A stretch of 64,000 bases of DNA from an uncultured Pseudomonadota bacterium (GTDB lineage Bacteria; Babelota; Babeliae; Babelales; JAUPTZ01), in contig CAYSBJ010000002.1 of NCBI GenBank assembly GCA_964429275.1, positions 282,459 to 346,458 on the forward strand. Reading direction: 5' to 3'. Below, in pieces: positions 2,577-17,181 of this stretch (position 1 is its first letter; every line of letters begins with the position of its first letter). Under the pieces are notes generated by a model. The model did not search any database. It was not told the DNA's origin and saw only the letters and a list, made by a program, of their open reading frames with translations. Made by a program: the position numbers and the translations under genes.

Positions 2577-5183
2577 TTACCGCACTATTTTCTCTAAACA
2601 TGCTTTATGTTTTGCAAAAATCTCCAACGCAATATTGCACTCATTCACCACCGATCCGAGGCGTTTCAGCTCTTCATGCCATACCAAGTCGGTTTCACCG
2701 GCAGTCTCCATACCGGTACGCAACGGCGTAATAACTTCGGTCATTATCAGGCTCAGTCCTTCGCGTAGCTCTGCTGCGTCACACATTAAACGGCAAACTC
2801 TCGCGTGGTCATAGGTTCCCATATAGCGATTTACCAAGGCCGCACGAACGGTTCGCGCTGCCGCCGAAAAACGTATAATCACTGCGCGCACCATAGACAA
2901 CTTGTCTTGACCGATCCAACGAAAATCGGCCCCTGCAGATAAATTAACATTCTCAAGCGATTCCCCCGGAAAAAGATCTGCGGGCGTATGTTTGCGAATT
3001 TCATCCATCGGAGTCTCGCACGTTAACTCATGAAGCATGGCTAAGGTGGTCGGCTCATCAACGCGTGCAAGTAGTTTCTTCGTTGCTACCCACATCTTAA
3101 TCTCCAGATCCCTCATAAGCAGATCAACCCGATGCCCAAGTCTTAAAAACTGGTCATAATGGGAAAGCCATAAAAGCGAAACACTCAGAGCAATCAAATA
3201 CTGTTTCAATAGGGAAAGTAAGGCAATAATCCGGTACGTACCAACATAGAGCCTCTTCAAATCTGAAGTCATATGCACACTACTACCACCAGTATCCATA
3301 TACATGTGTCCTCCTTGTGACACCAATGTACATCCCAGCGCGGAAGCCGCTGCGCCAAAAACCGCCCCTATCGCTCCACCCACTGCTGCCCGCTTAGCAA
3401 GAGTTTTGCCCGCTTGCCGCACAAACAACCCAACAATTGCCCCGATACCACCAGTTATAAGTGTTACACCAGCCATAATCCACCATTGATTATCCTGGAC
3501 CCACTTTACCCTATCTGCCTTTGTTGTCTCAAGGCAGCTCGTTGGCCGCTGCCGCTTAATTTCATTCCAAACCACAGAAGCAATAATGGGATCTTTTCGC
3601 CCTAGATAGCGGCACACAGTGTCACGTATATCGTTAAAAATATAATCACTCACTTCGGTGGCTAAAAGGCCCCCTTTTTTTCTGCTTTCATCATCGATAG
3701 CGTCAAATCCAACCTCCTTCAGCCCGTCAAGGACCCCTTGCGTGTTTGCACTATCCCACATTGGATTATTATGCAGAGTAAGCAAGAAACCTTTTTGTGG
3801 CATGGTGCTATAAAAAGTGGTTGGTAATACCGTTATCAAGTTATCATTCAACTGCAAGGTAGACAGCGTCAGTTGACCATCTTTATCTCGTGGAAGGCGA
3901 GCAATATCAAACATGGCAATTTTATTATCCATCGCATTCAATACACGTATGTCTGGCAGAAACGATATATTTGGCAGCTCGATAAATTGGTTGCCGGAAA
4001 TATCAAGTGTTTTAAGCTTGGGTACCCAGCGCAATGAAGGACAAGACACAAGCCCACAGCGCGGCAAAAACAACAAAGTAAGCCGTGGCACCGGCTTTAA
4101 AAACTCTGCTGGCAACTCAAGGGCGGCAACATCGGCCATAAAAAGTTTCTCTAACTTTTCTAGCCCTTGCAACGCACGGACTGAAATGCTACGTAATGGA
4201 TTATTGTTCAACATCAATGACTGAAGCGCAGGAAAACAGGAAAAAGCCCCTACCGGCAACTCGGCCAGGGCATTATTTGCCAGGTTAAGCTCGGTCACTT
4301 TAAGCAACTCTTCAGCTGAAAAAAAATTCGTAAAAACCTGACAAAAATCATCAAGCGTATTCAGCTCTTGACCGGAAAGATCAAGAAGCTTATCTCCTTT
4401 AAAAAAAGAGCTCATAAACTCATCTTTTCCATATTCAAGCGCCAACCCTGCAACGCCCTTAGTACTCGATAAATAGCCAATACTAAAAGTGGAGTCAAGA
4501 TCAGAAGAACGATCAGAAGAAGTAGAAGAGCAAGAGGAATTAGAGGTGCTTGATGAGCTTCGCGTACTGACCGAAGAACCATCAGAGCTCCCACAATCTT
4601 CTTGCCGCAGCATAACCCGCTCAACCCAGGCAGGCAACGGATCAAAACCCCACAATACCCGCTTAATTGAGCGTGGATTACACCGGTCAGTAATCGGAGA
4701 ATTATACAAATAACGAGCAAGTAATCGCTCATCCTCTGTTTCACGACCGGTAAAAGAAGTGCGCAATTTCTCCATCATATGCATAAACTCACGCATGCTG
4801 CGCCGATCAACACCAAGTCGTTGTACTGGTTTTCCTTCTGGCAAACCCAACGCAGTTAAAAAAGTAGTGGGGAGCAGGCAGACTGTTTTGTCCCCCAAAC
4901 AGATCTGCACTAACGGATATGAAATCGCGCTCCCCACTGCCTTTGCCACCTCCGTGACGGTGGACAGAGAGGTAAATTGTTGCACCATTGATTTCTCTCG
5001 CTTGAGAGAAATCAATAATTTCCCCCCAGCGGCGATATAATCAGTATATACCGATTGCGGCAAATACAGTCGCGCCCCCTCTGTACCGCATACAACCCCC
5101 GCAATAGTAATTGGGGAAGAACCACTCAGCGCGGACGCGTAATGCGCCGAGCCATATGCCGTGCTAGTCGATACACAGATCAA
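2577..5183 (-). CDS. leucine-rich-repeat protein with central glycine-rich double membrane segment (868 aa)
   Basis: About 8 LRR units, for example LNLANNALAELPVGAFSCFPALQSLMLNNNPLRSI, LDISGNQFIELPNISFLPDIRVLNAMDNKI and LQLNDNLITVLP (about nt 3746-4376). Ser-rich low-complexity tract at about 4490-4590. Two hydrophobic Gly-rich segments separated by RQAGKTLAKRA (about 3310-3490). The C-terminal ~240 aa are unassigned. Start codon uncertain. Confidence 0.7.
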   Translation of the reverse strand: MICVSTSTAYGSAHYASALSGSSPITIAGVVCGTEGARLYLPQSVYTDYIAAGGKLLISLKREKSMVQQFTSLSTVTEVAKAVGSAISYPLVQICLGDKTVCLLPTTFLTALGLPEGKPVQRLGVDRRSMREFMHMMEKLRTSFTGRETEDERLLARYLYNSPITDRCNPRSIKRVLWGFDPLPAWVERVMLRQEDCGSSDGSSVSTRSSSSTSNSSCSSTSSDRSSDLDSTFSIGYLSSTKGVAGLALEYGKDEFMSSFFKGDKLLDLSGQELNTLDDFCQVFTNFFSAEELLKVTELNLANNALAELPVGAFSCFPALQSLMLNNNPLRSISVRALQGLEKLEKLFMADVAALELPAEFLKPVPRLTLLFLPRCGLVSCPSLRWVPKLKTLDISGNQFIELPNISFLPDIRVLNAMDNKIAMFDIARLPRDKDGQLTLSTLQLNDNLITVLPTTFYSTMPQKGFLLTLHNNPMWDSANTQGVLDGLKEVGFDAIDDESRKKGGLLATEVSDYIFNDIRDTVCRYLGRKDPIIASVVWNEIKRQRPTSCLETTKADRVKWVQDNQWWIMAGVTLITGGIGAIVGLFVRQAGKTLAKRAAVGGAIGAVFGAAASALGCTLVSQGGHMYMDTGGSSVHMTSDLKRLYVGTYRIIALLSLLKQYLIALSVSLLWLSHYDQFLRLGHRVDLLMRDLEIKMWVATKKLLARVDEPTTLAMLHELTCETPMDEIRKHTPADLFPGESLENVNLSAGADFRWIGQDKLSMVRAVIIRFSAAARTVRAALVNRYMGTYDHARVCRLMCDAAELREGLSLIMTEVITPLRTGMETAGETDLVWHEELKRLGSVVNECNIALEIFAKHKACLEKIVR

Positions 5184-7217: not shown

Positions 7218-8267
7218 CTAAGACACAACCCGTACGCGTCCACGTACCGCTTCCAACGCTGGGTCAGCATTAATCTTTGCATTAATTTCATCAAAATTTA
7301 CCGACAGCCCGAGCTCCACCGCACGTTTTTTATTAATAACAAGCTCTCTCGTTGAGCCAAGAGAAATTACCGGCAGTGTTGCAGGATTTTTATGATGGAA
7401 AAGAATTTGGACAACCTGATCAAAACCAGCCTCTGCGATATAGCGAAGCTCACTGGCGTAAACAATCAATACATTTTCTTTTAAGGCTGACATAGCTCCA
7501 CTAAAGTACCCAGTATTATATCGCTCTGCCAACTTAGCAAGACCAGCAAATTGCATATCATTCAACGCATCTCCTTCAACGGTCATTACAATATCATGTC
7601 CCAACAACAGGCCTTCAACTAGCGCTAGAGATTCGAATAGAGATCCAACCGGTAAAAGCGTTACGCTTACACCTTTTGACTCTAAATAATCTTTAGTTTT
7701 TTCAGCCTTATTTACAATTTCTTTGGCAGCATCATACGGAAAATAAAAAGGTAATAAAACTGATTTGGTATGAGGAAATGTTGTATACAGCAATCGCGCA
7801 GGTACGGAATCTTCAAAGGATACGGTTATGACCCCCGTTACAGCGCCTCCCGGCTGCTCAAGTGATTCTATCAACTCAAGTTCCACTGGATTTTGTACAC
7901 CAACAAATACAATCGGCACAAGGCTCTTCCGTTTACGTGCAAGATTAATAAGAGTTTGAGAAAGCATTCGCCCAACAACAACAATACAATCAGCAGGGAG
8001 AGAAAGTACTTCATCACATGTTATAGTAACAGCTGATGTATCAGATAAATTGGGAATAGTCATCGCGTTAACTTCCACCTTTCCGCCTAACCACGATTTC
8101 GCCGTCTTTAAAAAGGCATCCTGCACTGCCTCATGAAAAGCAGTGTGGGACGCACTCACGAACAACACTTTCCGTGGCGACACATGCCCCGCATGCCAAT
8201 AATACGCAATAAGGGCTACAGCCCCCAGTACAATAATTGCGCTAAAAACATAGCCCTTCTTGCTCAT
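7218..8267 (-). CDS. membrane-anchored ABC-type substrate-binding-like protein (COG2984 / PF04392-like), copy A
   Basis: Motif IVFVGVQNPVELELIESLEQPGGAVTGV matches the V-x-DP-V...PGGN-V-TGV core of the family as I remember it. N-terminal anchor MSKKGYVFSAIIVLGAVALIAYYW. Start set at 8267 by analogy with the paralogue at 9292..10353. It shares one base with the upstream stop (TAATG). Confidence 0.75.
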   Translation of the reverse strand: MSKKGYVFSAIIVLGAVALIAYYWHAGHVSPRKVLFVSASHTAFHEAVQDAFLKTAKSWLGGKVEVNAMTIPNLSDTSAVTITCDEVLSLPADCIVVVGRMLSQTLINLARKRKSLVPIVFVGVQNPVELELIESLEQPGGAVTGVITVSFEDSVPARLLYTTFPHTKSVLLPFYFPYDAAKEIVNKAEKTKDYLESKGVSVTLLPVGSLFESLALVEGLLLGHDIVMTVEGDALNDMQFAGLAKLAERYNTGYFSGAMSALKENVLIVYASELRYIAEAGFDQVVQILFHHKNPATLPVISLGSTRELVINKKRAVELGLSVNFDEINAKINADPALEAVRGRVRVVS

Positions 8268-9257
8268 TAAACACCTCTGTCTATAGGACAATTAACCCAT
8301 TTTTTAATTGCAATAACATCTTCTGCTTTTTCAAAAAGCGCGATTGCTTCTTCAGGAAAGCCAATCATACGTAATATTGTGATATTAGCAAAAAAGACGC
8401 GTTCATCAGGAATAACTTTTACCGGAATATCACCAAGTGGCACCCCATCTACCCAATGCGTAATGAGCGTATCACGCAACGCCATTGCTGCTAAGTGCAG
8501 CTCGCAACCGAAAGCAAAAGCGGCGCCGGTATACATAGAGGAAAGAGTATCCGCACATAGCATCGCATCACGCTCAAAGGCAAAATACGCAGTTTCAGCA
8601 TACGCATCTGGAATGGCACTCTCCATAATGAGAATAACATCATGCTTTCTAAGCCGATCCTTCAAGGCTTTTTCCAACTCGATCTTAGTCATGCGTCCCT
8701 GACTGAAAATTAGAATTGGTTCGACTTCAATACCATAGGGCCTAAAAAATTCTGCTATCTCAGCCGCTTGTTCATGAAGCGGGTCATAGTCACCCATTGC
8801 AATGTAGGGAACAATGATTCGCTTAATATACTGCGCAGCAATTGCAAGTTTTTCTGCTACTGCTGTATTTGACGCTACTTCAGGAATAACTGCCGTCATA
8901 TCGGGACCAGGTGATTCTAAAGAATCAATCAATTTGTGAACCAATGGATCACGTACTGCCGTAAAAATAATCTTACCTCGCCCAATCTCCTGACATACTT
9001 GCTTTGAAAAAACGCTACACCGTAGGCCAATGGGTACCAAGACATCATACGGGTCCGCCATGTTAATTGATTCCGTTATTTTTTTTACGCATCGCTTCTT
9101 GCGTCAACTCAACGTTAACGTACGTAATATTGAAATAAAAATCATGCCCCATAACACGTCGCACTGTATCGGCATACGATCTATGAAGTTCGTTACCGAG
9201 GCCGAGCAGCAAAGCTACTCGGCACGGTCGTTTAGGTTTTGTTAACATGGTTTTCAT
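8267..9257 (-). pseudogene. PF04392-like cytoplasmic-type paralogue, split by a stop plus frameshift at about 9059-9065
   Basis: The track ORFs 9063..9257 (64 aa) and 8267..9061 (264 aa) together align end to end with the intact 330-aa paralogue 10353..11345. Compare MKTMLTKPKRPCRVALLLGL... with MTMLTKPKRPCRVALLLGL..., and ADPYDVLVPIGLRCSV with SDPYDVFVPVGLRCSV. At the junction the intact copy reads ATC AAT TTG TCT GAT CCA, whereas this copy reads ATC AAT TAA C ATG GCG GAC CCG. That is a 4-nt length difference that creates a TAA and a frame change. Confidence 0.65.
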
Positions 9258-9291
9258 AGGAGATTCCTAACACATAGCATTATCAACATTT

Positions 9292-10353
9292 TCACACAAC
9301 CCGTACGCGTCCCCGTACCGACTCCAGCGTTGGGTCGGCGTTAATCTTTGCGTTAATTTCATCAAGATCGACTGGGAGTCCAATTTCTGCAGCACGTTTT
9401 TTGTTGATGATAAACTCACGGGTTGAGCTAAGAAATATTACCGGCATTGTGCTTGGATGTTTATGTTCGTATAAAATTTGTCGCACTTGTTCAAAGGCGG
9501 CCTCTGCCACATAGCGAAATGAAGTTGCATAGACACACAAGGCATTTTCATTCAACGCAGCGGCAGCGCCGGCAAAATAGCCTATCCCATGGCGCTCAGC
9601 GAGGTGGGCAAGAGCCGGCGCATAGACGTCATTGCAGGCATCAGTCTCAACGGTCACAAGCATATCATGACCATTGAGCACACCTTCAACTCGCTTAATA
9701 ATATCCGTCAAGGCATCTATTTCAACAATTGCTACAAAAATGCCCCGCCCCTCTAGGCCTTTTTTAATGCCTTGCATTCTACGCGCAACATCATCAACGT
9801 TATCGCTTAGCATATACATTGGCAGAAGTACCGACTTTATCTGAGGAAAAGCAGAATGGAGCAATCCTGGATATTGGCATAAATCTGATACCAACGACGT
9901 TGCTCCCGTTACCATGCCTCCCGGTCGGTGAACAGATTCAACCAAACCCAGCTCTACTGGGGCCGCAACACCAATAAATACAATAGGTTTCATACTTTTT
10001 CTTTTGATCGCAAGGGATATCAAACTACGCGATATCGCAGTACCTACAACCACTATACAATCAGTCGGTAATGATAAAGCAGACTCGCAAATGGCCGTTG
10101 TCTTTATGGCATCACCGGGGTCCGCCACAAAAATATCTTGTACATCAGACCTGCATCCACGGTTCTGGGCAACAGCATTCAGAAAAAACTTTCGTATATC
10201 CTGATGAGTGGGTATAGCACTGCTACTTACCAGTAAGATTCTATATGGACGCCCATATTGAAAGTTTACATAGCCGGTATAGCGAGACCCAAAAGCTATC
10301 AACCCCAACGCAAAAACAACACTAGCAATATAAAGATAGCCTTTCTTACTCAT
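9292..10353 (-). CDS. membrane-anchored ABC-type substrate-binding-like protein (PF04392-like), copy B
   Basis: Paralogue of 7218..8267 along its full length. The C-termini match closely: INAKINADPTLESVRGRVRVV versus INAKINADPALEAVRGRVRVVS. Core motif IVFIGVAAPVELGLVESVHRPGGMVTGA. TAATG overlap with the upstream gene at 10353. Confidence 0.75.
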   Translation of the reverse strand: MSKKGYLYIASVVFALGLIAFGSRYTGYVNFQYGRPYRILLVSSSAIPTHQDIRKFFLNAVAQNRGCRSDVQDIFVADPGDAIKTTAICESALSLPTDCIVVVGTAISRSLISLAIKRKSMKPIVFIGVAAPVELGLVESVHRPGGMVTGATSLVSDLCQYPGLLHSAFPQIKSVLLPMYMLSDNVDDVARRMQGIKKGLEGRGIFVAIVEIDALTDIIKRVEGVLNGHDMLVTVETDACNDVYAPALAHLAERHGIGYFAGAAAALNENALCVYATSFRYVAEAAFEQVRQILYEHKHPSTMPVIFLSSTREFIINKKRAAEIGLPVDLDEINAKINADPTLESVRGRVRVV

Positions 10354-11339
10354 TAAACACCTCTTTTAATAGGACAGTCGATCCATTTTTTAATAACAAC
10401 AATGCCCTCCGCCTTCTGTAAAAGAGCAATTGCTTCCTCAGGAAATCCGATCATGCGCAACATTGCAACATTCACAAAAAAGACTCGTTCATTCGGAACA
10501 GTCTTAACCGGAATGTCTCCTAACGGTATACCATCTACCCAGTGGCTAAGCAATGTCTCCCTTAGTGCCGTAACAGCCGTGTGTAGCTCGCATCCAAATG
10601 CAAACGCAGCGCCTACGTACATAGAAGGAATAGTATCAGCGCAAAATGCCGCGTCTTTTTCAAAACATAAGTAGGATATTTCATGGCAAATATCAACCGT
10701 TCCACCCTCCACTAGAAGAACAATGTCATGCTTCTTTACACGGGACTTAAGCTCTCTTACTACCGCCGCCCGAGCAAGGGCTTCATCTCCAGTAACCGAA
10801 ATTGCCTCAACATCAATGTTGTATGATTTGAAAAAATTGACTACGTCGACTATTTGTTGATTCAGAGGATCATCAGCGTTTAAGGCAGAATAAGGAATAA
10901 TTATTCGCTTAATGTATTGCGCAATGATTGCCAATTTCTCAGCCACTGCCGTATTTGAAGGCATTTCAGGAACAACCGCGGTTATATCATGGCCTGGCGA
11001 TTCAAAAGAATCAACAAGCTTAAGAGCCAACGGATCGCGTACTGCCGTGATAACAATTTTCCCTCGCCCAATTTCCTGACAAACTTGCTTCAAATAAACA
11101 CTACACCGAAGCCCTACCGGCACAAAGACATCGTATGGATCAGACAAATTGATTAATTCCATTACTTTTTTACGTATAGCCTCTGGCCTCAACTCAACGT
11201 TAATATACGTAATTGAAAAATGAAAATCGCCTCCCATAATTCGACGCACAGTATCGGCATACATTCGATGAAATTCATAGTCAAGGCCGAGTAGCAGAGC
11301 TACTCGGCACGGTCGTTTAGGCTTTGTTAACATAGTCAT
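10353..11339 (-). CDS. PF04392-like protein without signal peptide or anchor (cytoplasmic type)
   Basis: Motif ITAVRDPLALKLVDSFESPGHDITAVV. The track ORF starts at a TTG at 11345 that directly abuts AGGAA. The ATG at 11339 has 6-nt spacing from AGGAA and matches the start of the split paralogue. Confidence 0.7.
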   Translation of the reverse strand: MTMLTKPKRPCRVALLLGLDYEFHRMYADTVRRIMGGDFHFSITYINVELRPEAIRKKVMELINLSDPYDVFVPVGLRCSVYLKQVCQEIGRGKIVITAVRDPLALKLVDSFESPGHDITAVVPEMPSNTAVAEKLAIIAQYIKRIIIPYSALNADDPLNQQIVDVVNFFKSYNIDVEAISVTGDEALARAAVVRELKSRVKKHDIVLLVEGGTVDICHEISYLCFEKDAAFCADTIPSMYVGAAFAFGCELHTAVTALRETLLSHWVDGIPLGDIPVKTVPNERVFFVNVAMLRMIGFPEEAIALLQKAEGIVVIKKWIDCPIKRGV

Positions 11340-11348
11340 ACACAATTC

Positions 11349-12419
11349 CTAATATTTGGTGTCATCGGAACCTTCGATAGTCCGCGCTCGCAACATGGCA
11401 TATTGCTCATCAGTGAGCTCTAAGCCTTGTTCGCGCATATTGCGATAGCTATACCGCATCCCTGGTTGTTGAGGAATGCAGATGGGCGGCGAAAGCCGAT
11501 TCCGTCTACACAAGACCACATCCAAGATCAGACTCATTAACGGCGCGCTAAATGCAGCACCAGATACACCCGCTCCAATCGCAGCACCATTTAGCACTGC
11601 ATCAAGATCAGAGGCAGCAATCAGCACCTGATATTCTCGCGCAATTCCTCTGAGCACGGGCATATTGATAGTGCTTGCTGGCTCGGAAAAGAGAATGAAC
11701 ACGTCAGCCTGGTCGGCTTTTTTTTGTAATTCCACCGTCCGGGGGTCACTTTCGCTCCAGTAATGAAACAGCACTTTCGAGCCGGCTCGCCTAAAGCAGT
11801 TGGCAACCGCCGCCTGTTCTTCGGTGTATTTCTCCCCGTTTTGCCCATATTCGTCTCGCTCACCAATTAAAAGGCAAACGGTTTCGGTATACGGCAATGC
11901 TCCGCGAATCAGGTGCAAAAACTCTTTAGGATCTGTAGGCCTAGTAAAAACACCACTCAAAGAATTATTTGTTCTTCGAGTGGCGATTGGCGTCTATACC
12001 GACTTAGGCACATTTTGCATACAAAAAAGTTGTGGTACTTTGATTCCGGAGACTTCCCGGACAGTATTGACCATGTCAGATTCCCATTCACCAGTCGTAA
12101 CGATAAAAGGGTAGTGTGCAGCATCAAGATGGTAATCAAGGTCCAAATGATTCAACAGTTGTTCTTCAACCTCTGCAAAATTACCGGAGATCTCTACCCT
12201 GGCGCAGGAATACCGCACGCCATCAAGAACGTGGGGCAAAGACTGGTCCAGGTCCATTTCAATACGCCTTGCCCAACTCTCGTTAGACTCGGCGTGAACT
12301 ATCAGAATACGCAGCTCAGGAGAGAGACGTAGACTGATTTCTTCAGTGACTGCTTCCTCGAGGTTTTCGCGAAAAGCGAACTTTTTGAGGTCGGCGGCCA
12401 TATTTAGTATCGATTTCAT
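11349..12419 (-). pseudogene. third PF04392-like paralogue: a 357-codon frame interrupted by one in-frame TAG (11994-11996)
   Basis: Track ORFs 11994..12419 and 11349..11960 are in the same frame (11996-11960 = 36). Reading through gives ...FCMQNVPKSV*TPIATRRTNNSLSGVFTRPTDPKEF..., which aligns across the stop with the VFVGVQNPVE...VTGVITVS region of the paralogues. The total length equals that of intact family members. Confidence 0.6.
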
Positions 12420-12454
12420 ACAAGCCTCGGGCTGTATTGTGGAGTTAATAAAAT

Positions 12455-12483
12455 ACTAAAAACCAGCCACTGTTACAGGCTGG
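12455..12483 (-). terminator. intrinsic-terminator-like hairpin in the leader of the PF04392-like operon (attenuator, or end of a small RNA)
   Basis: Minus strand reads CCAGCC-UGUAACAGU-GGCUGG followed by UUUUUAGUAUUUUAUU. It lies 36-64 nt upstream of the start codon at 12419. Confidence 0.45.
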
Positions 12484-12827
12484 CATTGGCTATTCAATCA
12501 CAAAAAGAGCTCGAGTGCAAATTTGAAACGAGCAAAAACCATTATTTCACCGAAAGTTTTTAGCAAGTTGGCTCAACGTGAAACAACCTTGCCAACGAAT
12601 AACACGTGCCGCAGCCAAAATCGATAAAAAAGACTGGCCGTCATAAGCCCTCCTTCATAACACCGTCGCACCAGCGGCGCCAAGGCTGACTGCACAGGGG
12701 AAGTTATTCTCCCTCGCACTGCGGACCCCCATCTAACCTGCGAAAAGCCACTCATACACGCATTCTCTATACAAATGCTATGCAAGGTAACTAGGGTAGT
12801 TTTAGTACTTTAGCCAAAAGGAATTGT

Positions 12828-14738
12828 ATGTGTAACCACCCTTCCATCCACGTCACCAGCATTTTGCTGGCCCTCTGTGCCCTTGTACACTGTGGTGCCG
12901 CAACCAAAAATGTCTTAGTACAAAACAGCAGCCCGCATGAGATGTTTGGCGCTATTTATCAAACTACCAAATCGTATGGGTTGCGCATGGGAGAGATAAC
13001 TCTCCTCAAGCCAAATGCCGAAACCACCCTCAAGATGCCAAACGCCAATTTTTTCAAGAAACGCATGCTCTACATCGACTCACGCAAAGAAAATTTGCCC
13101 CAGAAGCTCGACTTTGAAAACCCCACTGTTTTTTTTGCTACCGCCCCGGCCAATCTCAACTTTGGCCGTCCAACCAAACTTATATACCTTGAAAGCGCAC
13201 GTGGACCTGAAATTATCCCAGCCAACAGCAAAGCGGAAGAGGAAATCCGGGAAGAATTACGCAAAAGCATCGCCGAAGAATCGGAGCATTATGGCACCGT
13301 TGCCAGAGTCACCAGCACTAAAGAGACGCTTTGTCCGGATGAGGCAACCTACCTCAACGAGCGCCGCAAAATAACGAGAGCCACCATAAACACACTACTC
13401 AAAAAAGAAATTAATGTCGCATATGTGCCCAATATCACTCTCTGTATAAGCGGTGGTGGGTTTCGCGCAATGCTTGCATCACTTGGTGCCCTTCGTGGTC
13501 TTGAAGAAATTGGGGTATGGGGAACGATCGATTATGTTGCTAGCCTTTCCGGCGGTTCCTGGGCGCTCATTCCGTGGATACAAAGTAAAAAATCACTGAC
13601 CGATTACAGTGATTTTGTTGCCAACCACATTGCGCAGCAAACTGAAGAAAAGCTTATTAAAAATTCGCTCTATGATTTTAATACGCTCCGCCACGTCAAA
13701 GGCTTGTTTGGCAATAGCGCCGGACTTACTGATCTGTATAGCCTCGTCCTTTCCAAGCGCCTACTTCAGCCACTCAAAGACAAACATCTTTCAATCCATT
13801 TTTCTGAACTTGCTAAAAAGATCCACCCGTCCCAGCATCCCTACCCACTGTGTAGCGCTGCAATGCCATATCAAAAAAAGCTGAAGAGTAAATACGACTG
13901 GGTTACCATGTCGCCCTGGAACATTGAGCTTGCAAAAACCGGCCTGAGCATCCCTACATGGGCATTTATGCGCCACTTCATGAATGGCAACTCTATTGAC
14001 GCTACTCCTGAGCCGTGGCTTGGCTACTTGATGGGTATTTGGGGATCAGCATTTAGCATAAGTATGCAAGAAATTTTGCTCCACACCCACAACAATAATC
14101 CAGAATTTGCCACGATCGTGCCACGTTCTTGGATAAAATCACAACTCGTGCGCAAGTGGCTTGGCACTAAACATTGCACCGCGCTTGTACCAAACTTTGT
14201 GTATGGCATGCCAGGAATTCCTCATAATTATAAGAGCTCCATGCCACTTGTTGATGCCGGCCACTACTGCAATCTGCCAGTACCACCGTTCCTTCACCCA
14301 CAACGTAATCCAGAACTCATCATCATGCTTCACAGTAGCATCAACGATATCGACGCCGAAAAAACATTGCGCAAAACATTTAAACTTCTTCGCAAAAAAT
14401 ACCCAGCCATCGCTATCGATGCTAAGGAAGCATTTAGCAAACCGGTCGTCTATTGGCCATCATCGGACGCAAAAACGCCAAGTGTTATCCACATTGGCCT
14501 GTATAAGAATGAAAATTTCAGCACAACGTACGACCCACGCACAACAGCAGAAACAAAGACGTTCAACTTCTGGTACACCACAGCACAAGCACAACAGCTC
14601 ATTGGGCTGCTGAAGCAAACGATTATCGACCACAAAGAGTTGTTTCTGATGGCAATTGAAAATGCAGTAGAAAAAAAACAAAAGGAGACAGGTACATTGG
14701 AATGGTTGAGTAGTAACGCGAAAGCGTTGTTCAGTTAA
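12828..14738 (+). CDS. secreted cytosolic-phospholipase-A2-like lipase (PLA2_B / cPLA2 catalytic domain-like)
   Basis: CISGGGFRAMLASLGALRGL (GGGxR oxyanion motif). ASLSGGSWA (GxSGxS nucleophile). MPLVDAGHYCNLPVPPFLHPQRNPELIIMLHSS resembles the cPLA2-alpha Asp region DSGLTFNLPYPLILRPQRGVDLIISFDFS as I recall it. N-terminal signal-peptide-like SILLALCALVHCGAA. Confidence 0.75.
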   Translation: MCNHPSIHVTSILLALCALVHCGAATKNVLVQNSSPHEMFGAIYQTTKSYGLRMGEITLLKPNAETTLKMPNANFFKKRMLYIDSRKENLPQKLDFENPTVFFATAPANLNFGRPTKLIYLESARGPEIIPANSKAEEEIREELRKSIAEESEHYGTVARVTSTKETLCPDEATYLNERRKITRATINTLLKKEINVAYVPNITLCISGGGFRAMLASLGALRGLEEIGVWGTIDYVASLSGGSWALIPWIQSKKSLTDYSDFVANHIAQQTEEKLIKNSLYDFNTLRHVKGLFGNSAGLTDLYSLVLSKRLLQPLKDKHLSIHFSELAKKIHPSQHPYPLCSAAMPYQKKLKSKYDWVTMSPWNIELAKTGLSIPTWAFMRHFMNGNSIDATPEPWLGYLMGIWGSAFSISMQEILLHTHNNNPEFATIVPRSWIKSQLVRKWLGTKHCTALVPNFVYGMPGIPHNYKSSMPLVDAGHYCNLPVPPFLHPQRNPELIIMLHSSINDIDAEKTLRKTFKLLRKKYPAIAIDAKEAFSKPVVYWPSSDAKTPSVIHIGLYKNENFSTTYDPRTTAETKTFNFWYTTAQAQQLIGLLKQTIIDHKELFLMAIENAVEKKQKETGTLEWLSSNAKALFS

Positions 14739-15862
14739 ATAAGCCCCGCCAATATCCCCACGCGATACCGCTCCATCAACCGCTTCATAAACGATAAATT
14801 ATGAATACTAGCCAACGTATAATAGGTCAACTCATGAGCCTTAAATAAATGATGCACATACGCTACTGAATAATTAGTACAGGTATAGCACGGACATCCC
14901 GGCTCAATCGGGCCCAGTGTCTGCGCGTAGGAAACTTTTCCTATCTTCACCGTACCATGCGTCGTAAAGAGTAATCCATGGCGAGCGCATTTGGTCGGGT
15001 GCGAACTGTCAAACGTATCAATGCCAAGCGGAACTGCCAATTCAATCGATGGTATGTCACCAATGCCAAGCAAATGAATCGGCTTATTTTCCGGCAGCTG
15101 ATGAGCCGTATGGCGCAGCATCTCCTCCATTTCTACGCGATCTTTGCCAACACTTCCCCCAATACCATAGCCATCAAATGGCAAGCTGCCCAAATACTGT
15201 GCACTCTGACTACGCATATCTTTATCAACCCCGCCATGCACCACCGCATACAATGCCTGGCTTTGTGGGTTCGCCTGATGCGCCTCAAGTGATCGCTTTT
15301 CCCAGCGATGCGTTCGCTCCAAACTTTTTTTAAGACGACGCAGGTCAGTGTGATAGGGCGGTAGTTCATCAAAAGAAACAATAATATCGGCCCCCAATTG
15401 CTTCTGGGCTCCAATAGAACTTTCCGGTGTTAACAGAAGCGGACTCCCGTCACGGTAGGAACGAAACATCACCCCTTCTTCGGTAATCTTTGCCACGCTA
15501 TTGCGCTGCTGCTTGACCCCCTTACTCTTCAATTCTTCAGTGTACCCGCCGTAGGCCAAGCTAAAGACTTGAAAGCCACCCGAGTCGGTAATAATTGGTT
15601 GGGTACGCTGCATAAACGAATGCAAACCACCAGCATGCGCTACAACATCGGCCCCAGGTTGTACCATGAGGTGGTAGGTATTACAAAACAATAATTGAAT
15701 ATCAAGCTCCGCTACCTGCTGGGCCGTTAGCCCTTTCATGCAGCCATTGGTTCCCACTGGCACAAAGCCGGGCGTATCAATAACACCATGTGGTGTATGA
15801 ATACGGCCAACACGCGCCCGCGACTTAGTCGAGGTATATAAAACTTCAAATTTAAAACTCAT
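14735..15862 (-). CDS. tgt: tRNA-guanine transglycosylase (queuine/preQ1 tRNA-ribosyltransferase)
   Basis: N-terminus SRARVGRIHTPHGVIDTPGFVPVGTNG...NTYHL, DSGGFQV, and the zinc motif CPCYTCTNYSVAYVHHL. The track start at 15874 is TTG. The ATG at 15862 is preceded by GGGGGGA and matches the canonical N-terminus. Confidence 0.9.
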   Translation of the reverse strand: MSFKFEVLYTSTKSRARVGRIHTPHGVIDTPGFVPVGTNGCMKGLTAQQVAELDIQLLFCNTYHLMVQPGADVVAHAGGLHSFMQRTQPIITDSGGFQVFSLAYGGYTEELKSKGVKQQRNSVAKITEEGVMFRSYRDGSPLLLTPESSIGAQKQLGADIIVSFDELPPYHTDLRRLKKSLERTHRWEKRSLEAHQANPQSQALYAVVHGGVDKDMRSQSAQYLGSLPFDGYGIGGSVGKDRVEMEEMLRHTAHQLPENKPIHLLGIGDIPSIELAVPLGIDTFDSSHPTKCARHGLLFTTHGTVKIGKVSYAQTLGPIEPGCPCYTCTNYSVAYVHHLFKAHELTYYTLASIHNLSFMKRLMERYRVGILAGLI

Positions 15863-16514
15863 TTTTCCCCCCAATCACAAACCGCTTGGTTCCTGCCACC
15901 AATGGTGCAAGAAGCAGAATAATGACCCCTTTAATAAGCAACGTAAACAGAATGATCTGCCGTACGTCATCCACCACCCCATATAAACCGGCAAAAGCAA
16001 ATACCACCGTATCCACCAATTGACCACCGATCACAGCCCCAACACTCGCTACAGCAGATGCTACACCCCCCAGCAACCGGGTCAGTACCAAATGCACCCG
16101 CTCAGAGACTAAGTACGCCAAAAAGCTGGCGAGCAACATACGCAACCCAGTACTACAGAGCTGCGCAATCATAAGCGACATATCGGCATCTATGCCATCA
16201 TAGGCACAATGAAACTGTGTTAAACAGACAAAAAATAGTAAAAAACCAAACATTTCCCAAATAGCACGCCGCGCCCGCGCGTCATTATAGTAATAGCGGA
16301 TAAGGCTAATACCGTACATACCACTGACAATAAAGACTTCACTGCAGGTTGTTTCTATACCAAATAACATGATTTGCTTCGTTACAAACAGGTTGGCAAA
16401 AATCAATTGGAGGCCAAGAGTAGAGATGAGCGCCCCGTACGAAAACCAAAGCCCCCACAGTACAGCCCCACTTACTGCCACAATGTGGGCAAGAAATAGC
16501 AACTCATTGTACAT
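15852..16514 (-). CDS. yhhQ: queuosine-precursor transporter family protein (YhhQ / Vut_1-like), copy 2
   Basis: Polytopic membrane protein. Motifs FANLFVTKQI and GQLVDTVVFAFAGLYG. Paralogue of the upstream gene. Start moved to MYNELLFLAH (16514) by analogy with MNELIFVTHA. Confidence 0.65.
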   Translation of the reverse strand: MYNELLFLAHIVAVSGAVLWGLWFSYGALISTLGLQLIFANLFVTKQIMLFGIETTCSEVFIVSGMYGISLIRYYYNDARARRAIWEMFGFLLFFVCLTQFHCAYDGIDADMSLMIAQLCSTGLRMLLASFLAYLVSERVHLVLTRLLGGVASAVASVGAVIGGQLVDTVVFAFAGLYGVVDDVRQIILFTLLIKGVIILLLAPLVAGTKRFVIGGKNEF

Positions 16515-17181
16515 AGCCACGCTCCTTACACCAGACTGCAAAAGTCACCAGAACCGAACTCGAAAGAATCAATACTAACTTAATACCGGTGCTCACGCCG
16601 GTCATTTGCAACAAAATGCCGGCCGAAAGGTCTCGCCCAAATACCCCAAAAAAGAAAATCAACGCATCGACCAACTGCCCCAAAGCCATTGCCGCAAAAG
16701 TAGTATAAAACAGCCCGCGGCCATGAAACACCCGGGACAGGAGCCCCGCTAGCGCAACGGTTACGAGCTGTGCCACGTAGTGAGCAACAATACTGAAAAA
16801 AGTAATAGCTGGCATCCGACCAAGCACCCCCGCAAAAACAGGCTGCATGGTATCAACTGATGATGGCGCATAGGCAACCTGAAACCAGCATAAAAGAAAG
16901 GCTATGCTAGACAGTCCAACCGATAGTAGAGCTGATCGCCGGGCAAACGACTCGCCCCAAATGGCACGCCCCATCAAAATGGCACAAATACTGCCAATAA
17001 TGTACACATCGCCACCGCTGGAAACAAAGCCGCATAAATACATTTTTTTGATAACAAAAAGGTTGGCAAAGACAACGTAGAGACAGGCCAGCGCCTGCAG
17101 CATATGCTGACCAGTAAGAAAGGCGCCGATCGCAGCGCCAAAAACAACTAATGCATGGGTAACAAAAATAAGCTCATTCAT
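16504..17181 (-). CDS. yhhQ: queuosine-precursor transporter family protein (YhhQ / Vut_1-like), copy 1
   Basis: Polytopic membrane protein. Motifs FANLFVIKKMY and GQLVDALIFFFGVFG. Located immediately upstream of copy 2 and tgt. Confidence 0.65.
   Translation of the reverse strand: MNELIFVTHALVVFGAAIGAFLTGQHMLQALACLYVVFANLFVIKKMYLCGFVSSGGDVYIIGSICAILMGRAIWGESFARRSALLSVGLSSIAFLLCWFQVAYAPSSVDTMQPVFAGVLGRMPAITFFSIVAHYVAQLVTVALAGLLSRVFHGRGLFYTTFAAMALGQLVDALIFFFGVFGRDLSAGILLQMTGVSTGIKLVLILSSSVLVTFAVWCKERGYVQ

Follow-up and report, generated by a model that had tools for sequence, protein, structure and literature searches.

A cluster of PF04392-like binding-protein paralogues without adjacent transporter genes and its expansion in a Dependentiae genome

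Introduction

ABC importers with PF02653-type permeases need a binding protein. The described binding proteins closest to those analyzed here are TrpX, CD0873, VC_1101 and SP1069 (PF04392, COG2984; PDB 3LFT, 6HNI and 3LKV), and the ligands of the solved TrpX-type proteins are Trp, Tyr or Phe (PMC6816091). The proteins of the locus described here share with these the sequence family and a predicted two-lobe fold, and a permease and a short ATPase of the cognate type, as in TrpXYZ-type systems, are present in the Dependentiae genome that carries it. The locus departs from the TrpXYZ type in that transporter genes are absent from it, leaderless copies are in the majority, and one subfamily (X) falls under the Pfam threshold; moreover, the genome holds about 51 copies instead of one to three, and positions that are invariant in transporter-linked relatives have not been retained.

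The Bordetella ‘Bug’ family consists of over-represented periplasmic orphan receptors of tripartite tricarboxylate transporters (TTT), which share few translocators. As in that family, the binding proteins of this genome far outnumber the translocators (about 51 genes, at least 23 of them anchored, versus two), most copies lie away from membrane components, and the expansion is lineage-specific. Unlike the Bug receptors, they belong to another fold family and to an ABC rather than a TTT system, are encoded in a 1.2-Mb host-dependent genome and stand in fixed three-subfamily operons, and many of them are leaderless, so that not all of the receptors are exported.

Binding-protein homologues also act as cytoplasmic sensors, examples being Pseudomonas aeruginosa AmiC and the NrtA-like C-terminal domain of the cyanobacterial nitrate-transporter ATPase NrtC, the latter a paralogue of the outside receptor of its own transporter. 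Similarly, the leaderless proteins modeled here are predicted to have a periplasmic-binding-protein fold without an export signal, and the NrtC arrangement is the one that we propose for the leaderless C and X proteins relative to the anchored A proteins. In contrast to NrtC, C and X are free-standing rather than fused to an ATPase, and the ATPase of the candidate partner transporter has no C-terminal domain; unlike AmiC, they have no AmiR-like partner regulator encoded nearby. Dependentiae live only inside protists and import nearly all that they need, by means largely inferred from annotation. A search of the literature on Dependentiae, PF04392, COG2984 and binding-protein expansion found no description of an expansion such as the one reported here.

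Results

The window, that is, the whole 64-kb stretch of DNA that was analyzed, carries on its minus strand, at 7218-12419, five PF04392-like genes, all of one family and arranged X-C-A-C-A, with X and the second C gene broken. The first gene (11349..12419) belongs to X, a divergent, leaderless PF04392-like subfamily, and is a pseudogene by one TAG at 11994-11996, the sole in-frame stop in its translation, which leaves ORF pieces at 11994-12419 and 11349-11960. It is followed by C1 (10353..11345; 328-330 aa), a leaderless C-type paralogue that is seemingly intact, and by A1 (9292..10353; 353 aa), an intact A-type gene whose product has an N-terminal membrane anchor. Downstream lie C2 (8267..9257), whose DNA alignment with C1 revealed a +1 frameshift in a run of eight A residues at 9079-9086 (the run is shorter in C1) that leaves pieces at 9063-9257 and 8267-9061, and A2 (7218..8267; 349 aa), an intact, anchored A-type gene whose ORF spans 7218-8291 with the ATG at 8267. 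C2 is 65% identical to C1 (dN/dS 0.11), and A2 is 49% identical to A1. TAATG overlaps join the C1 stop to the A1 start at 10351-10355 and the C2 stop to the A2 start at 8265-8269, and the stop codon of X is found 3 nt upstream of where C1 starts, which means that no leader on C1 was overlooked. The cluster is one X-C-A module in which the C-A pair has been tandemly duplicated. X and C1 also share a reading frame, which is not consistent in other modules and was taken as chance.

At the site of the X TAG, a relative from the same genus (G199) has CAG, and its X protein is 98% identical (dN/dS 0.04-0.05), ruling out an altered genetic code or read-through; on this comparison, the TAG is an ordinary recent nonsense change. 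The non-coding leader upstream of the operon (12420..12827, minus strand) is about 90% identical overall in G199. About 38 nt before the X start, at 12458-12483, it contains a hairpin and then a T-run, and the bases immediately 5' of that start are identical in the two genomes. Promoter-like sites in the leader and operon were no commoner than in shuffled sequence. The sole Rfam match to the leader or operon was CbSR1, far below threshold (27.7 versus 146 bits), and a riboswitch or other known RNA was rejected because no match came near threshold.

The PF04392 profile matched A2 (E 3e-14, 53.3 bits), A1 (E 1e-13, 51.2 bits), C1 (E 1e-8, 35.2 bits) and the C-terminal piece of C2 (E 3e-6, 27.2 bits), all of which exceed the Pfam gathering cut-off of 25.9 bits, whereas the X pieces from the window gave no Pfam match and an intact X paralogue scored 17.9 bits, under the cut-off. 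X is tied to the family by a family-specific profile and by the predicted fold of the intact paralogue, and in the tree the window X gene falls in the X clade and A1 in the A clade. AF2 models of C1 (pLDDT 92.8) and the intact X paralogue (pLDDT 85.3) showed complete two-lobe type-I periplasmic-binding-protein folds. The top Foldseek matches of both models were 3LFT, 6HNI and 3LKV, with target-normalised TM-scores of 0.73-0.81, and the family profile matched the chains of these structures with E values of 1e-20 to 1e-30. A domain search of the X, C and A proteins found no signalling, DNA-binding or other extra domain.

Columns conserved at a level of at least 85% in 21 ordinary Dependentiae binding proteins are mostly variable in A, C, X and a further subfamily, C'. 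The positions that are not kept comprise the candidate ligand-site motifs TASH..LD, IATPxAQ, N78, D150, E179/N181 and D230-N231, which suggests that ligand binding may be radically changed or lost, even in the A copies. Cysteine content is about 2% in the expanded family and about 1% in ordinary Dependentiae binding proteins, a comparison confounded by genome composition.

Export signals were judged solely from N-terminal hydrophobicity. By this measure, the N terminus of A1 and that of A2 form a hydrophobic anchor, which X, C1 and C2 lack; 29 of the 52 family rows in the genome are leaderless. The A1 anchor reads MSKK-GYLYIASVVFALGLIAFGS. The A anchors resemble those of 20 ordinary Dependentiae binding proteins, with K/R just after the hydrophobic segment in nearly all copies (mean K+R 3.4 after and 2.0 before, compared with 3.4 after and 2.4 before in the ordinary proteins). 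A reversed topology, with the A domain in the cytoplasm, was dropped because the ordinary proteins show the same charge pattern. TatC was not found in the genome, which is 98% complete, and this ruled out hitchhiker export of the leaderless copies through the Tat system.

These results agree with most of the original prediction for the locus, which had described five minus-strand genes of one family, an in-frame stop in the first and a disruption in the fourth, TAATG overlaps within both C-A pairs, an absence of transporter genes, and three of five copies without an export signal. Its assignment to PF04392 was borne out at the Pfam cut-off for A1, A2, C1 and the C2 piece but not for X, for which membership comes from the family-specific profile and fold. 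Where it had distinguished two types of gene, there are three subfamilies, X, C and A, and the cluster is one of about 10 modules.

The 1.2-Mb genome (G000) holds about 51 paralogues, which make up about 4% of its DNA (about 50 kb). PF04392 gave 44 matches and the family-specific profile 53 ORF pieces, or about 51 genes, most of which have full-length open frames. They fall into four subfamilies, X (leaderless, with an N-terminal extension), C and C' (leaderless) and A (N-terminal membrane anchor), arranged in modules that always begin with X; a congener (G043) has the same module layouts. The X, C, C' and A clades are separate in the tree and their internal branching is congruent, indicating that modules were duplicated as units. 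Full-length X-type matches occur only in one Dependentiae family (f1), in all six of its six genomes, and the leaderless subfamilies are present in two genera, whereas other sampled Dependentiae have 0-3 PF04392 copies. A search of 1.84 billion representative proteins yielded, in its best 150 matches, 51 recognisable X-type clusters, all of them leaderless. Selection on the family is purifying (dN/dS 0.04-0.28, with dS saturated). Identity between A and C was not meaningfully higher within modules than between them, at 0.21 versus 0.195 over all columns and 0.277 versus 0.260 over canon-invariant columns, and matched binding pockets in module partners are therefore unsupported, though the test is weak.

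No PF02653 permease is encoded in the 64-kb window. The only two in the genome lie at 11.6-12.5 kb of contig C2 and 192.8-193.8 kb of contig C3, and they belong to two COG4120/COG1101-type translocators, P1, which adjoins its own binding protein (SBP1), and P2. The P2 permease/ATPase operon (contig C3:192101-193779) has no binding protein beside it in either G000 or G043; its ATPase is minimal (244 aa, with no C-terminal domain), and its permease is 69-98% identical within the genus. In other Dependentiae with a P2 orthologue, hand comparison of gene coordinates placed a PF04392-like gene within about 2.2 kb in 52 of 56 cases. In family f1 the SBP gene no longer adjoins the P2 operon, and P2 persists without a binding protein. 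A starred branch in the tree (95/98, both values starred) joins the P2-linked binding protein, SBP2, to the expanded paralogues, apart from SBP1; support for the expanded clade as one group is only 81%. The best explanation of these trees and gene neighborhoods is that the expanded gene is probably SBP2, the substrate-binding protein of a TrpXYZ-like ABC importer of the COG2984/COG4120/COG1101 type.

Within one genus, three genomes have the gene orders X-C-A-C-A, X-C-A-A and X-C-A-A-A-C-A. The C and A copies of G199 are at most 54-63% identical to those of G000, versus 98% for X; C2 is deleted in G199 save for its 3' end, and the A2 counterpart is shortened to 209 aa. We infer that the modules undergo quick birth, death and reshuffling, with the X TAG and the C2 frameshift as recent casualties.

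Discussion

The reading that best fits these sequence comparisons, to which we give about an even chance, is that the A copies are orphan receptors of P2 and that the leaderless C and X proteins are cytoplasmic ligand-binding partners. The anchored A proteins would be located at the outer side of the inner membrane, like ordinary Dependentiae binding proteins, and would serve as alternative receptors that bring different host-derived solutes to the shared P2 translocator. With no Sec signal of their own and no Tat system in the genome, C and X would not be exportable and would act in the cytoplasm as putative ligand-binding partners of their own module. Most likely they would sense the imported solute, buffer it, or gate the importer from the cytoplasmic side, and the tight spacing and TAATG overlaps would couple translation of the module genes.

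The original prediction had proposed either a ligand-sensing or scaffolding role or a transporter encoded elsewhere. For the anchored copies, the latter appears to be the better-supported half of that interpretation, given a P2 operon without a binding protein, the neighboring binding-protein gene of 52 of 56 P2 orthologues and the shared branch in the tree. It had also held that an operon elsewhere lacking its own binding protein would explain the genes trivially. P2 comes close to being such an operon, but it leaves the leaderless copies unexplained; they are more than half of the total, and ordinary transport is no explanation for them. In a more specific form of the P2 proposal, which we regard as doubtful, each X-C-A module would be a matched outside/inside receptor set for one solute, with A capturing it in the periplasm for P2, and C and X binding the same solute in the cytoplasm and gating, buffering or handing on its import. 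If so, about 10 interchangeable cassettes would multiplex and feedback-control one translocator in a minimal parasite genome; to our knowledge, such a multiplexed outside/inside cassette organisation has not been described for ABC importers.

Alternatively, the modules may have left transport, with X, C and A forming a membrane-tethered hetero-oligomer that acts as a ligand sensor or scaffold independently of P2. The three subfamilies are always co-encoded, X first, and were co-duplicated; the TAATG overlaps suggest co-expression at a fixed ratio, and the excess of leaderless copies, the loss of residues invariant in transporter-linked relatives and the strong conservation of X between G000 and G199 (98% identity, dN/dS 0.04) are consistent with this idea. 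We nevertheless consider it unlikely, since no output domain, whether for signalling or for DNA binding, is present in any of the proteins, P2 remains constrained despite lacking a binding protein of its own, which importers of its class need, and the A anchors are like those found on ordinary binding proteins linked to transporters. In addition, an outward A and an inside C and X would lie on opposite sides of the membrane, where a direct complex would be hard to form.

The turnover of the cassettes, in which X is 98% identical between G000 and G199 and no C or A copy exceeds 54-63%, also raises the possibility that these are variable proteins, adhesins or else secreted factors, which interact with the protist host and diversify under its pressure. 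The variable gene order within one genus, the pseudogenes and the homopolymer tract at the C2 frameshift point the same way, as does the presence in the window of genes for other proteins that are likely host-directed, namely an LRR protein, a PLA2-like lipase and OTU-like proteases, and a precedent exists in C. difficile CD0873, which binds tyrosine and also serves as an adhesin (PMC6816091). However, C and X lack export signals, and an export route for leaderless proteins was not identified, Tat being absent; A has its anchor in the inner of the cell's two membranes and so would not be surface-exposed; dN/dS values of 0.1-0.28 (dS saturated) indicate purifying rather than diversifying selection; and eight A residues make a short tract for phase variation. 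Such a role is improbable on this evidence. We attach less weight still to the suggestion that duplication left the leaderless copies, or the entire cluster, as decaying remnants that now have no function, for which a case could be made from the two broken genes among the five in the window and from the deletion of C2 and the shortened A2 counterpart in G199. The reading frames of most of the roughly 51 copies are open over their full length, two genera and 51 diverged clusters worldwide (among the best 150 matches) retain the leaderless subfamilies, dN/dS is 0.04-0.28, the predicted folds of C1 and the X paralogue are confident, and some 50 kb of neutral DNA would be unlikely in a reduced 1.2-Mb genome, all of which make decay very improbable.

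Altogether, about 4% of a 1.2-Mb genome is invested in some 50 diverged copies of one binding protein, organised in three-part operons that are conserved. Should the anchored copies feed the importer that lacks its own binding protein, a single translocator would economically serve a wider range of substrates. Should the leaderless copies function intracellularly, they would represent a large natural set of cytoplasmic receptors with a binding-protein fold, paired with outside paralogues. Either outcome bears on the recruitment of binding proteins to new roles and offers small putative ligand-binding scaffolds.

The minus-strand locus consists of five genes of one binding-protein family

Seven minus-strand ORFs between positions 7218 and 12419 resolve into five genes of one family, as the original prediction had proposed. 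From upstream to downstream these are X (11349-12419), C1 (10353-11339), A1 (9292-10353), C2 and A2 (7218-8267), named after the paralogue subfamilies of the genome that carries them (G000). A Pfam search matched PF04392 (ABC_sub_bind) above threshold with A2 (E 3e-14), A1 (E 1e-13), C1 (E 1e-8) and the larger of the two C2 pieces (8267-9061, E 3e-6). The predicted PF04392 assignment thus held for these four genes but not for X of the window, which was without a Pfam match and instead matched paralogues elsewhere in G000. X is broken by a single in-frame TAG (11994-11996), and C2, the disrupted member of the second predicted pair, by a +1 frameshift within a run of eight A residues (9079-9086) that is shorter in C1. 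The TAATG overlap expected within each pair was read at both C/A junctions (10351-10355 and 8265-8269). The N-termini of A1 and A2 carry a short run of basic residues and then a segment of ~19-27 residues that is uncharged and for the most part hydrophobic; no such segment was found in X, C1 or C2, the three copies said to be without an export signal. Only 3 nt separate the X stop codon from the C1 start, which leaves no room for an overlooked leader. Every particular of the earlier description that could be checked was correct, and the cluster is a type II module (X-C-A order) with a tandem duplication of the C-A pair.

Upstream of X, a minus-strand hairpin (12458-12483; CCAGCC and GGCTGG separated by 9 nt, then TTTTT) lies ~38 nt before the start codon and was placed at the end of the leader, which is 408 nt long. 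Directly upstream of the X start, the genus relative G199 has the same bases, and no Rfam match to the hairpin or leader was found. Divergent from the operon, 12828-14738 (plus strand) encodes a protein of 636 aa that has a hydrophobic, signal-like segment at its N-terminus and contains a PLA2_B domain (PF01735, E 6e-20), a eukaryote-type lysophospholipase domain; this protein is a candidate host-lipid-acting enzyme. On the minus strand, 14735-16541 contains tgt (queuine tRNA-ribosyltransferase, E 3e-120) overlapping a Vut_1/YhhQ-type transporter gene, in what looks like a queuosine-precursor salvage pair, and 2577-5183 encodes a protein of 868 aa that contains leucine-rich repeats (LRR_8, E 1e-13). 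The glycine/alanine-rich hydrophobic stretch that follows these repeats resembles a paired membrane hairpin, and the protein may be a host-directed membrane protein.

The family is expanded within a single lineage and arranged in modules

The G000 genome (1.208 Mb, 8 contigs, 98% complete, ~46% G+C) belongs to the Dependentiae, and the nearest database relatives of A1 are proteins named Candidatus Dependentiae. Its contigs C4-C7 are short (4-12.5 kb), have 60-70% G+C versus 46% in the remaining genome, and are probably binning contaminants. Pfam matched PF04392 at 44 places in G000, and an iterated family-specific profile recovered 53 ORF pieces representing ~51 genes, or ~4% of the genome. 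A maximum-likelihood tree, rerun with outgroups, resolved the subfamilies, although our trees were quick searches with some long branches. X (9 copies, ~360-380 aa, with an N-terminal extension), C (11 copies, ~320 aa) and C' (4 copies) are leaderless, and A (15 copies) has an N-terminal anchor throughout; there are also ~12 divergent members with mixed features and one ordinary copy, SBP1, which adjoins a transporter. Cysteine makes up ~2% of the expanded paralogues (median 6-7 per protein), compared to ~1% of ordinary Dependentiae binding proteins and 1.4% of the long ORFs of G000.

The family genes lie in operon-like modules, every one of which begins with X. Type II modules, X-C-A(-A), were found on three contigs (C1:340600-343733, C2:178898-182041, C3:129261-133697) and in the window, with an X-C-C-A form at C1:200237-204771. 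Type I modules, X-A-C'-C(-A), occupy C2:28448-32557, C2:32989-38199, C2:105614-110778 and C1:435409-439620. The X, C and A clades have matching branching orders, with, e.g., the C1:34x, C3:13x and C2:18x copies together in all three, indicating that the module was duplicated as a unit.

In 150 other Dependentiae genomes we counted 0-3 PF04392 copies; dozens of candidates were present only in G000 and its congener G043. The module layouts of G043 are the same as those of G000, and its orthologue of the window cluster reads X-C-A-A-A-C-A. A search of 261 Dependentiae genomes with an X profile gave full-length matches only in the family of G000 (6 of 6 genomes, two genera), and outside it the profile weakly matched only ordinary binding proteins, from profile position ~110 on. 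Against a library of 1.84 billion representative proteins, this profile had only 479 matches at E ≤ 0.001. Subfamily profiles classified 51 of the best 150 of these as X-type, none of them with an N-terminal hydrophobic segment.

The paralogues are predicted to retain the binding-protein fold and to differ in location

AlphaFold2, run with G000's own paralogues as the alignment, gave confident two-lobe models for C1 (pLDDT 92.8, pTM 0.88) and an intact X paralogue (pLDDT 85.3), the first ~55 residues of the latter being of low confidence and including one long helix. The top structural matches of both models were 3LFT, 6HNI/6HNJ and 3LKV, which are Trp-, Tyr- and Phe-binding family members (PMC6816091), and the same chains were the top sequence matches of the A, C and X profiles. 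Most positions conserved at ≥85% among 21 transporter-linked Dependentiae binding proteins are lost in A, C, C' and X and vary among the expanded paralogues. By sequence, this says only that they have departed from the ordinary signature, and it would fit either new specificities or a loss of small-molecule binding.

In their anchors the A copies look like ordinary Dependentiae binding proteins, with which they also share a K/R-rich stretch behind the hydrophobic segment; a reversed topology of A, considered because of that stretch, was dropped since the ordinary proteins have it too. No hydrophobic N-terminus was found in C, C' or X, as judged by hydrophobicity alone, and no TatC was found in the G000 genome; C, C' and X are therefore most likely cytoplasmic.

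One of two transporter operons lacks a binding protein

The original prediction had allowed for a transporter encoded elsewhere, and G000 has exactly two PF02653-type permeases. P1 (C2:10758-12484, with the ATPase gene before the permease gene) lies immediately after its own ordinary binding protein (C2:9757-10755), the top PF04392 and TrpX-model match in G000. P2 (C3:192101-193779; 313-aa permease, 244-aa ATPase) has no binding-protein gene beside it; ftsY borders it on one flank, and genes for FUN14 and a type II/IV secretion ATPase lie on the opposite flank. Full-length homology links the two permeases (25% identity, pairwise E 4e-15), and both operons consist of one permease and one short ATPase. 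Within the genus, P2 identity is 69-98%, and G043 has the same context lacking a binding protein. Orthologues occur in 56 other Dependentiae genomes (36-55% identity); in 52 of these, by hand comparison of coordinates from two tables, a PF04392-like gene lies within ~2.2 kb, adjacent or one gene away.

In a joint tree of 20 such P2-neighbour proteins (SBP2), 20 P1-type proteins (SBP1) and the expanded paralogues, a starred branch (95*/98*) placed SBP1, with the copy of G000 itself, on one side and SBP2 together with the expanded paralogues on the other. The second-best profile match of the 51 X-type library proteins was usually SBP2 and never SBP1. The expanded family has its affinity with SBP2, and the most economical history suggested by these sequences is descent from the SBP2 lost from beside P2 in this lineage.

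Discussion

The G199 flanks are 88-90% identical in nucleotide sequence to those of the window, and the X proteins of the two share 98% identity (dN/dS 0.04-0.05). G199 has CAG at the site of the TAG, which makes the nonsense change a recent one. The order in G199 is X-C-A-A; only the 3' end of C2 is left there, and the counterpart of A2 is truncated at 209 aa. The best identity of any G199 C or A copy to any window copy is 54-63%, with synonymous sites saturated. With X conserved and these copies diverged, the downstream cassettes differ between close relatives, either because parts of a larger array, like that of G043, were lost differentially or because modules recombined. Elsewhere in G000, 2.4-kb segments of two type I modules spanning X and the first A (C2:32814-35248 and C2:105440-107859) are 86% identical, and the remainder (C', C, A) is ≤66% identical, a pattern that suggests gene conversion between modules or a partial duplication. 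All pairwise dN/dS values were 0.04-0.28, indicating purifying selection. Three less likely explanations compete with the preferred one given below: a transport-independent hetero-oligomer, as advanced in the original prediction, variable host-interaction proteins, and decaying duplicates.

The explanation that we prefer is that A copies, predicted to face the outside, would dock on P2 as alternative receptors, while C and X would stay in the cytoplasm and, more speculatively, might sense, buffer or gate, linked to the same solute. The C-terminal domain of NrtC and AmiC are parallels for a cytoplasmic role of binding-protein homologues, and the suggestion for C and X draws on this analogy. A comparison of A-C similarity within modules, an indirect check of the same-solute suggestion, gave it no support.

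Cases in which orphan binding proteins exceed translocators in number are already known, as are cytoplasmic homologues of binding proteins. Searches of open-access papers and preprints turned up no account of a PF04392 expansion in Dependentiae or of modules of the X-C-A type. The interest of this family lies in the scale of its expansion in a reduced genome and in its unexplained leaderless majority.
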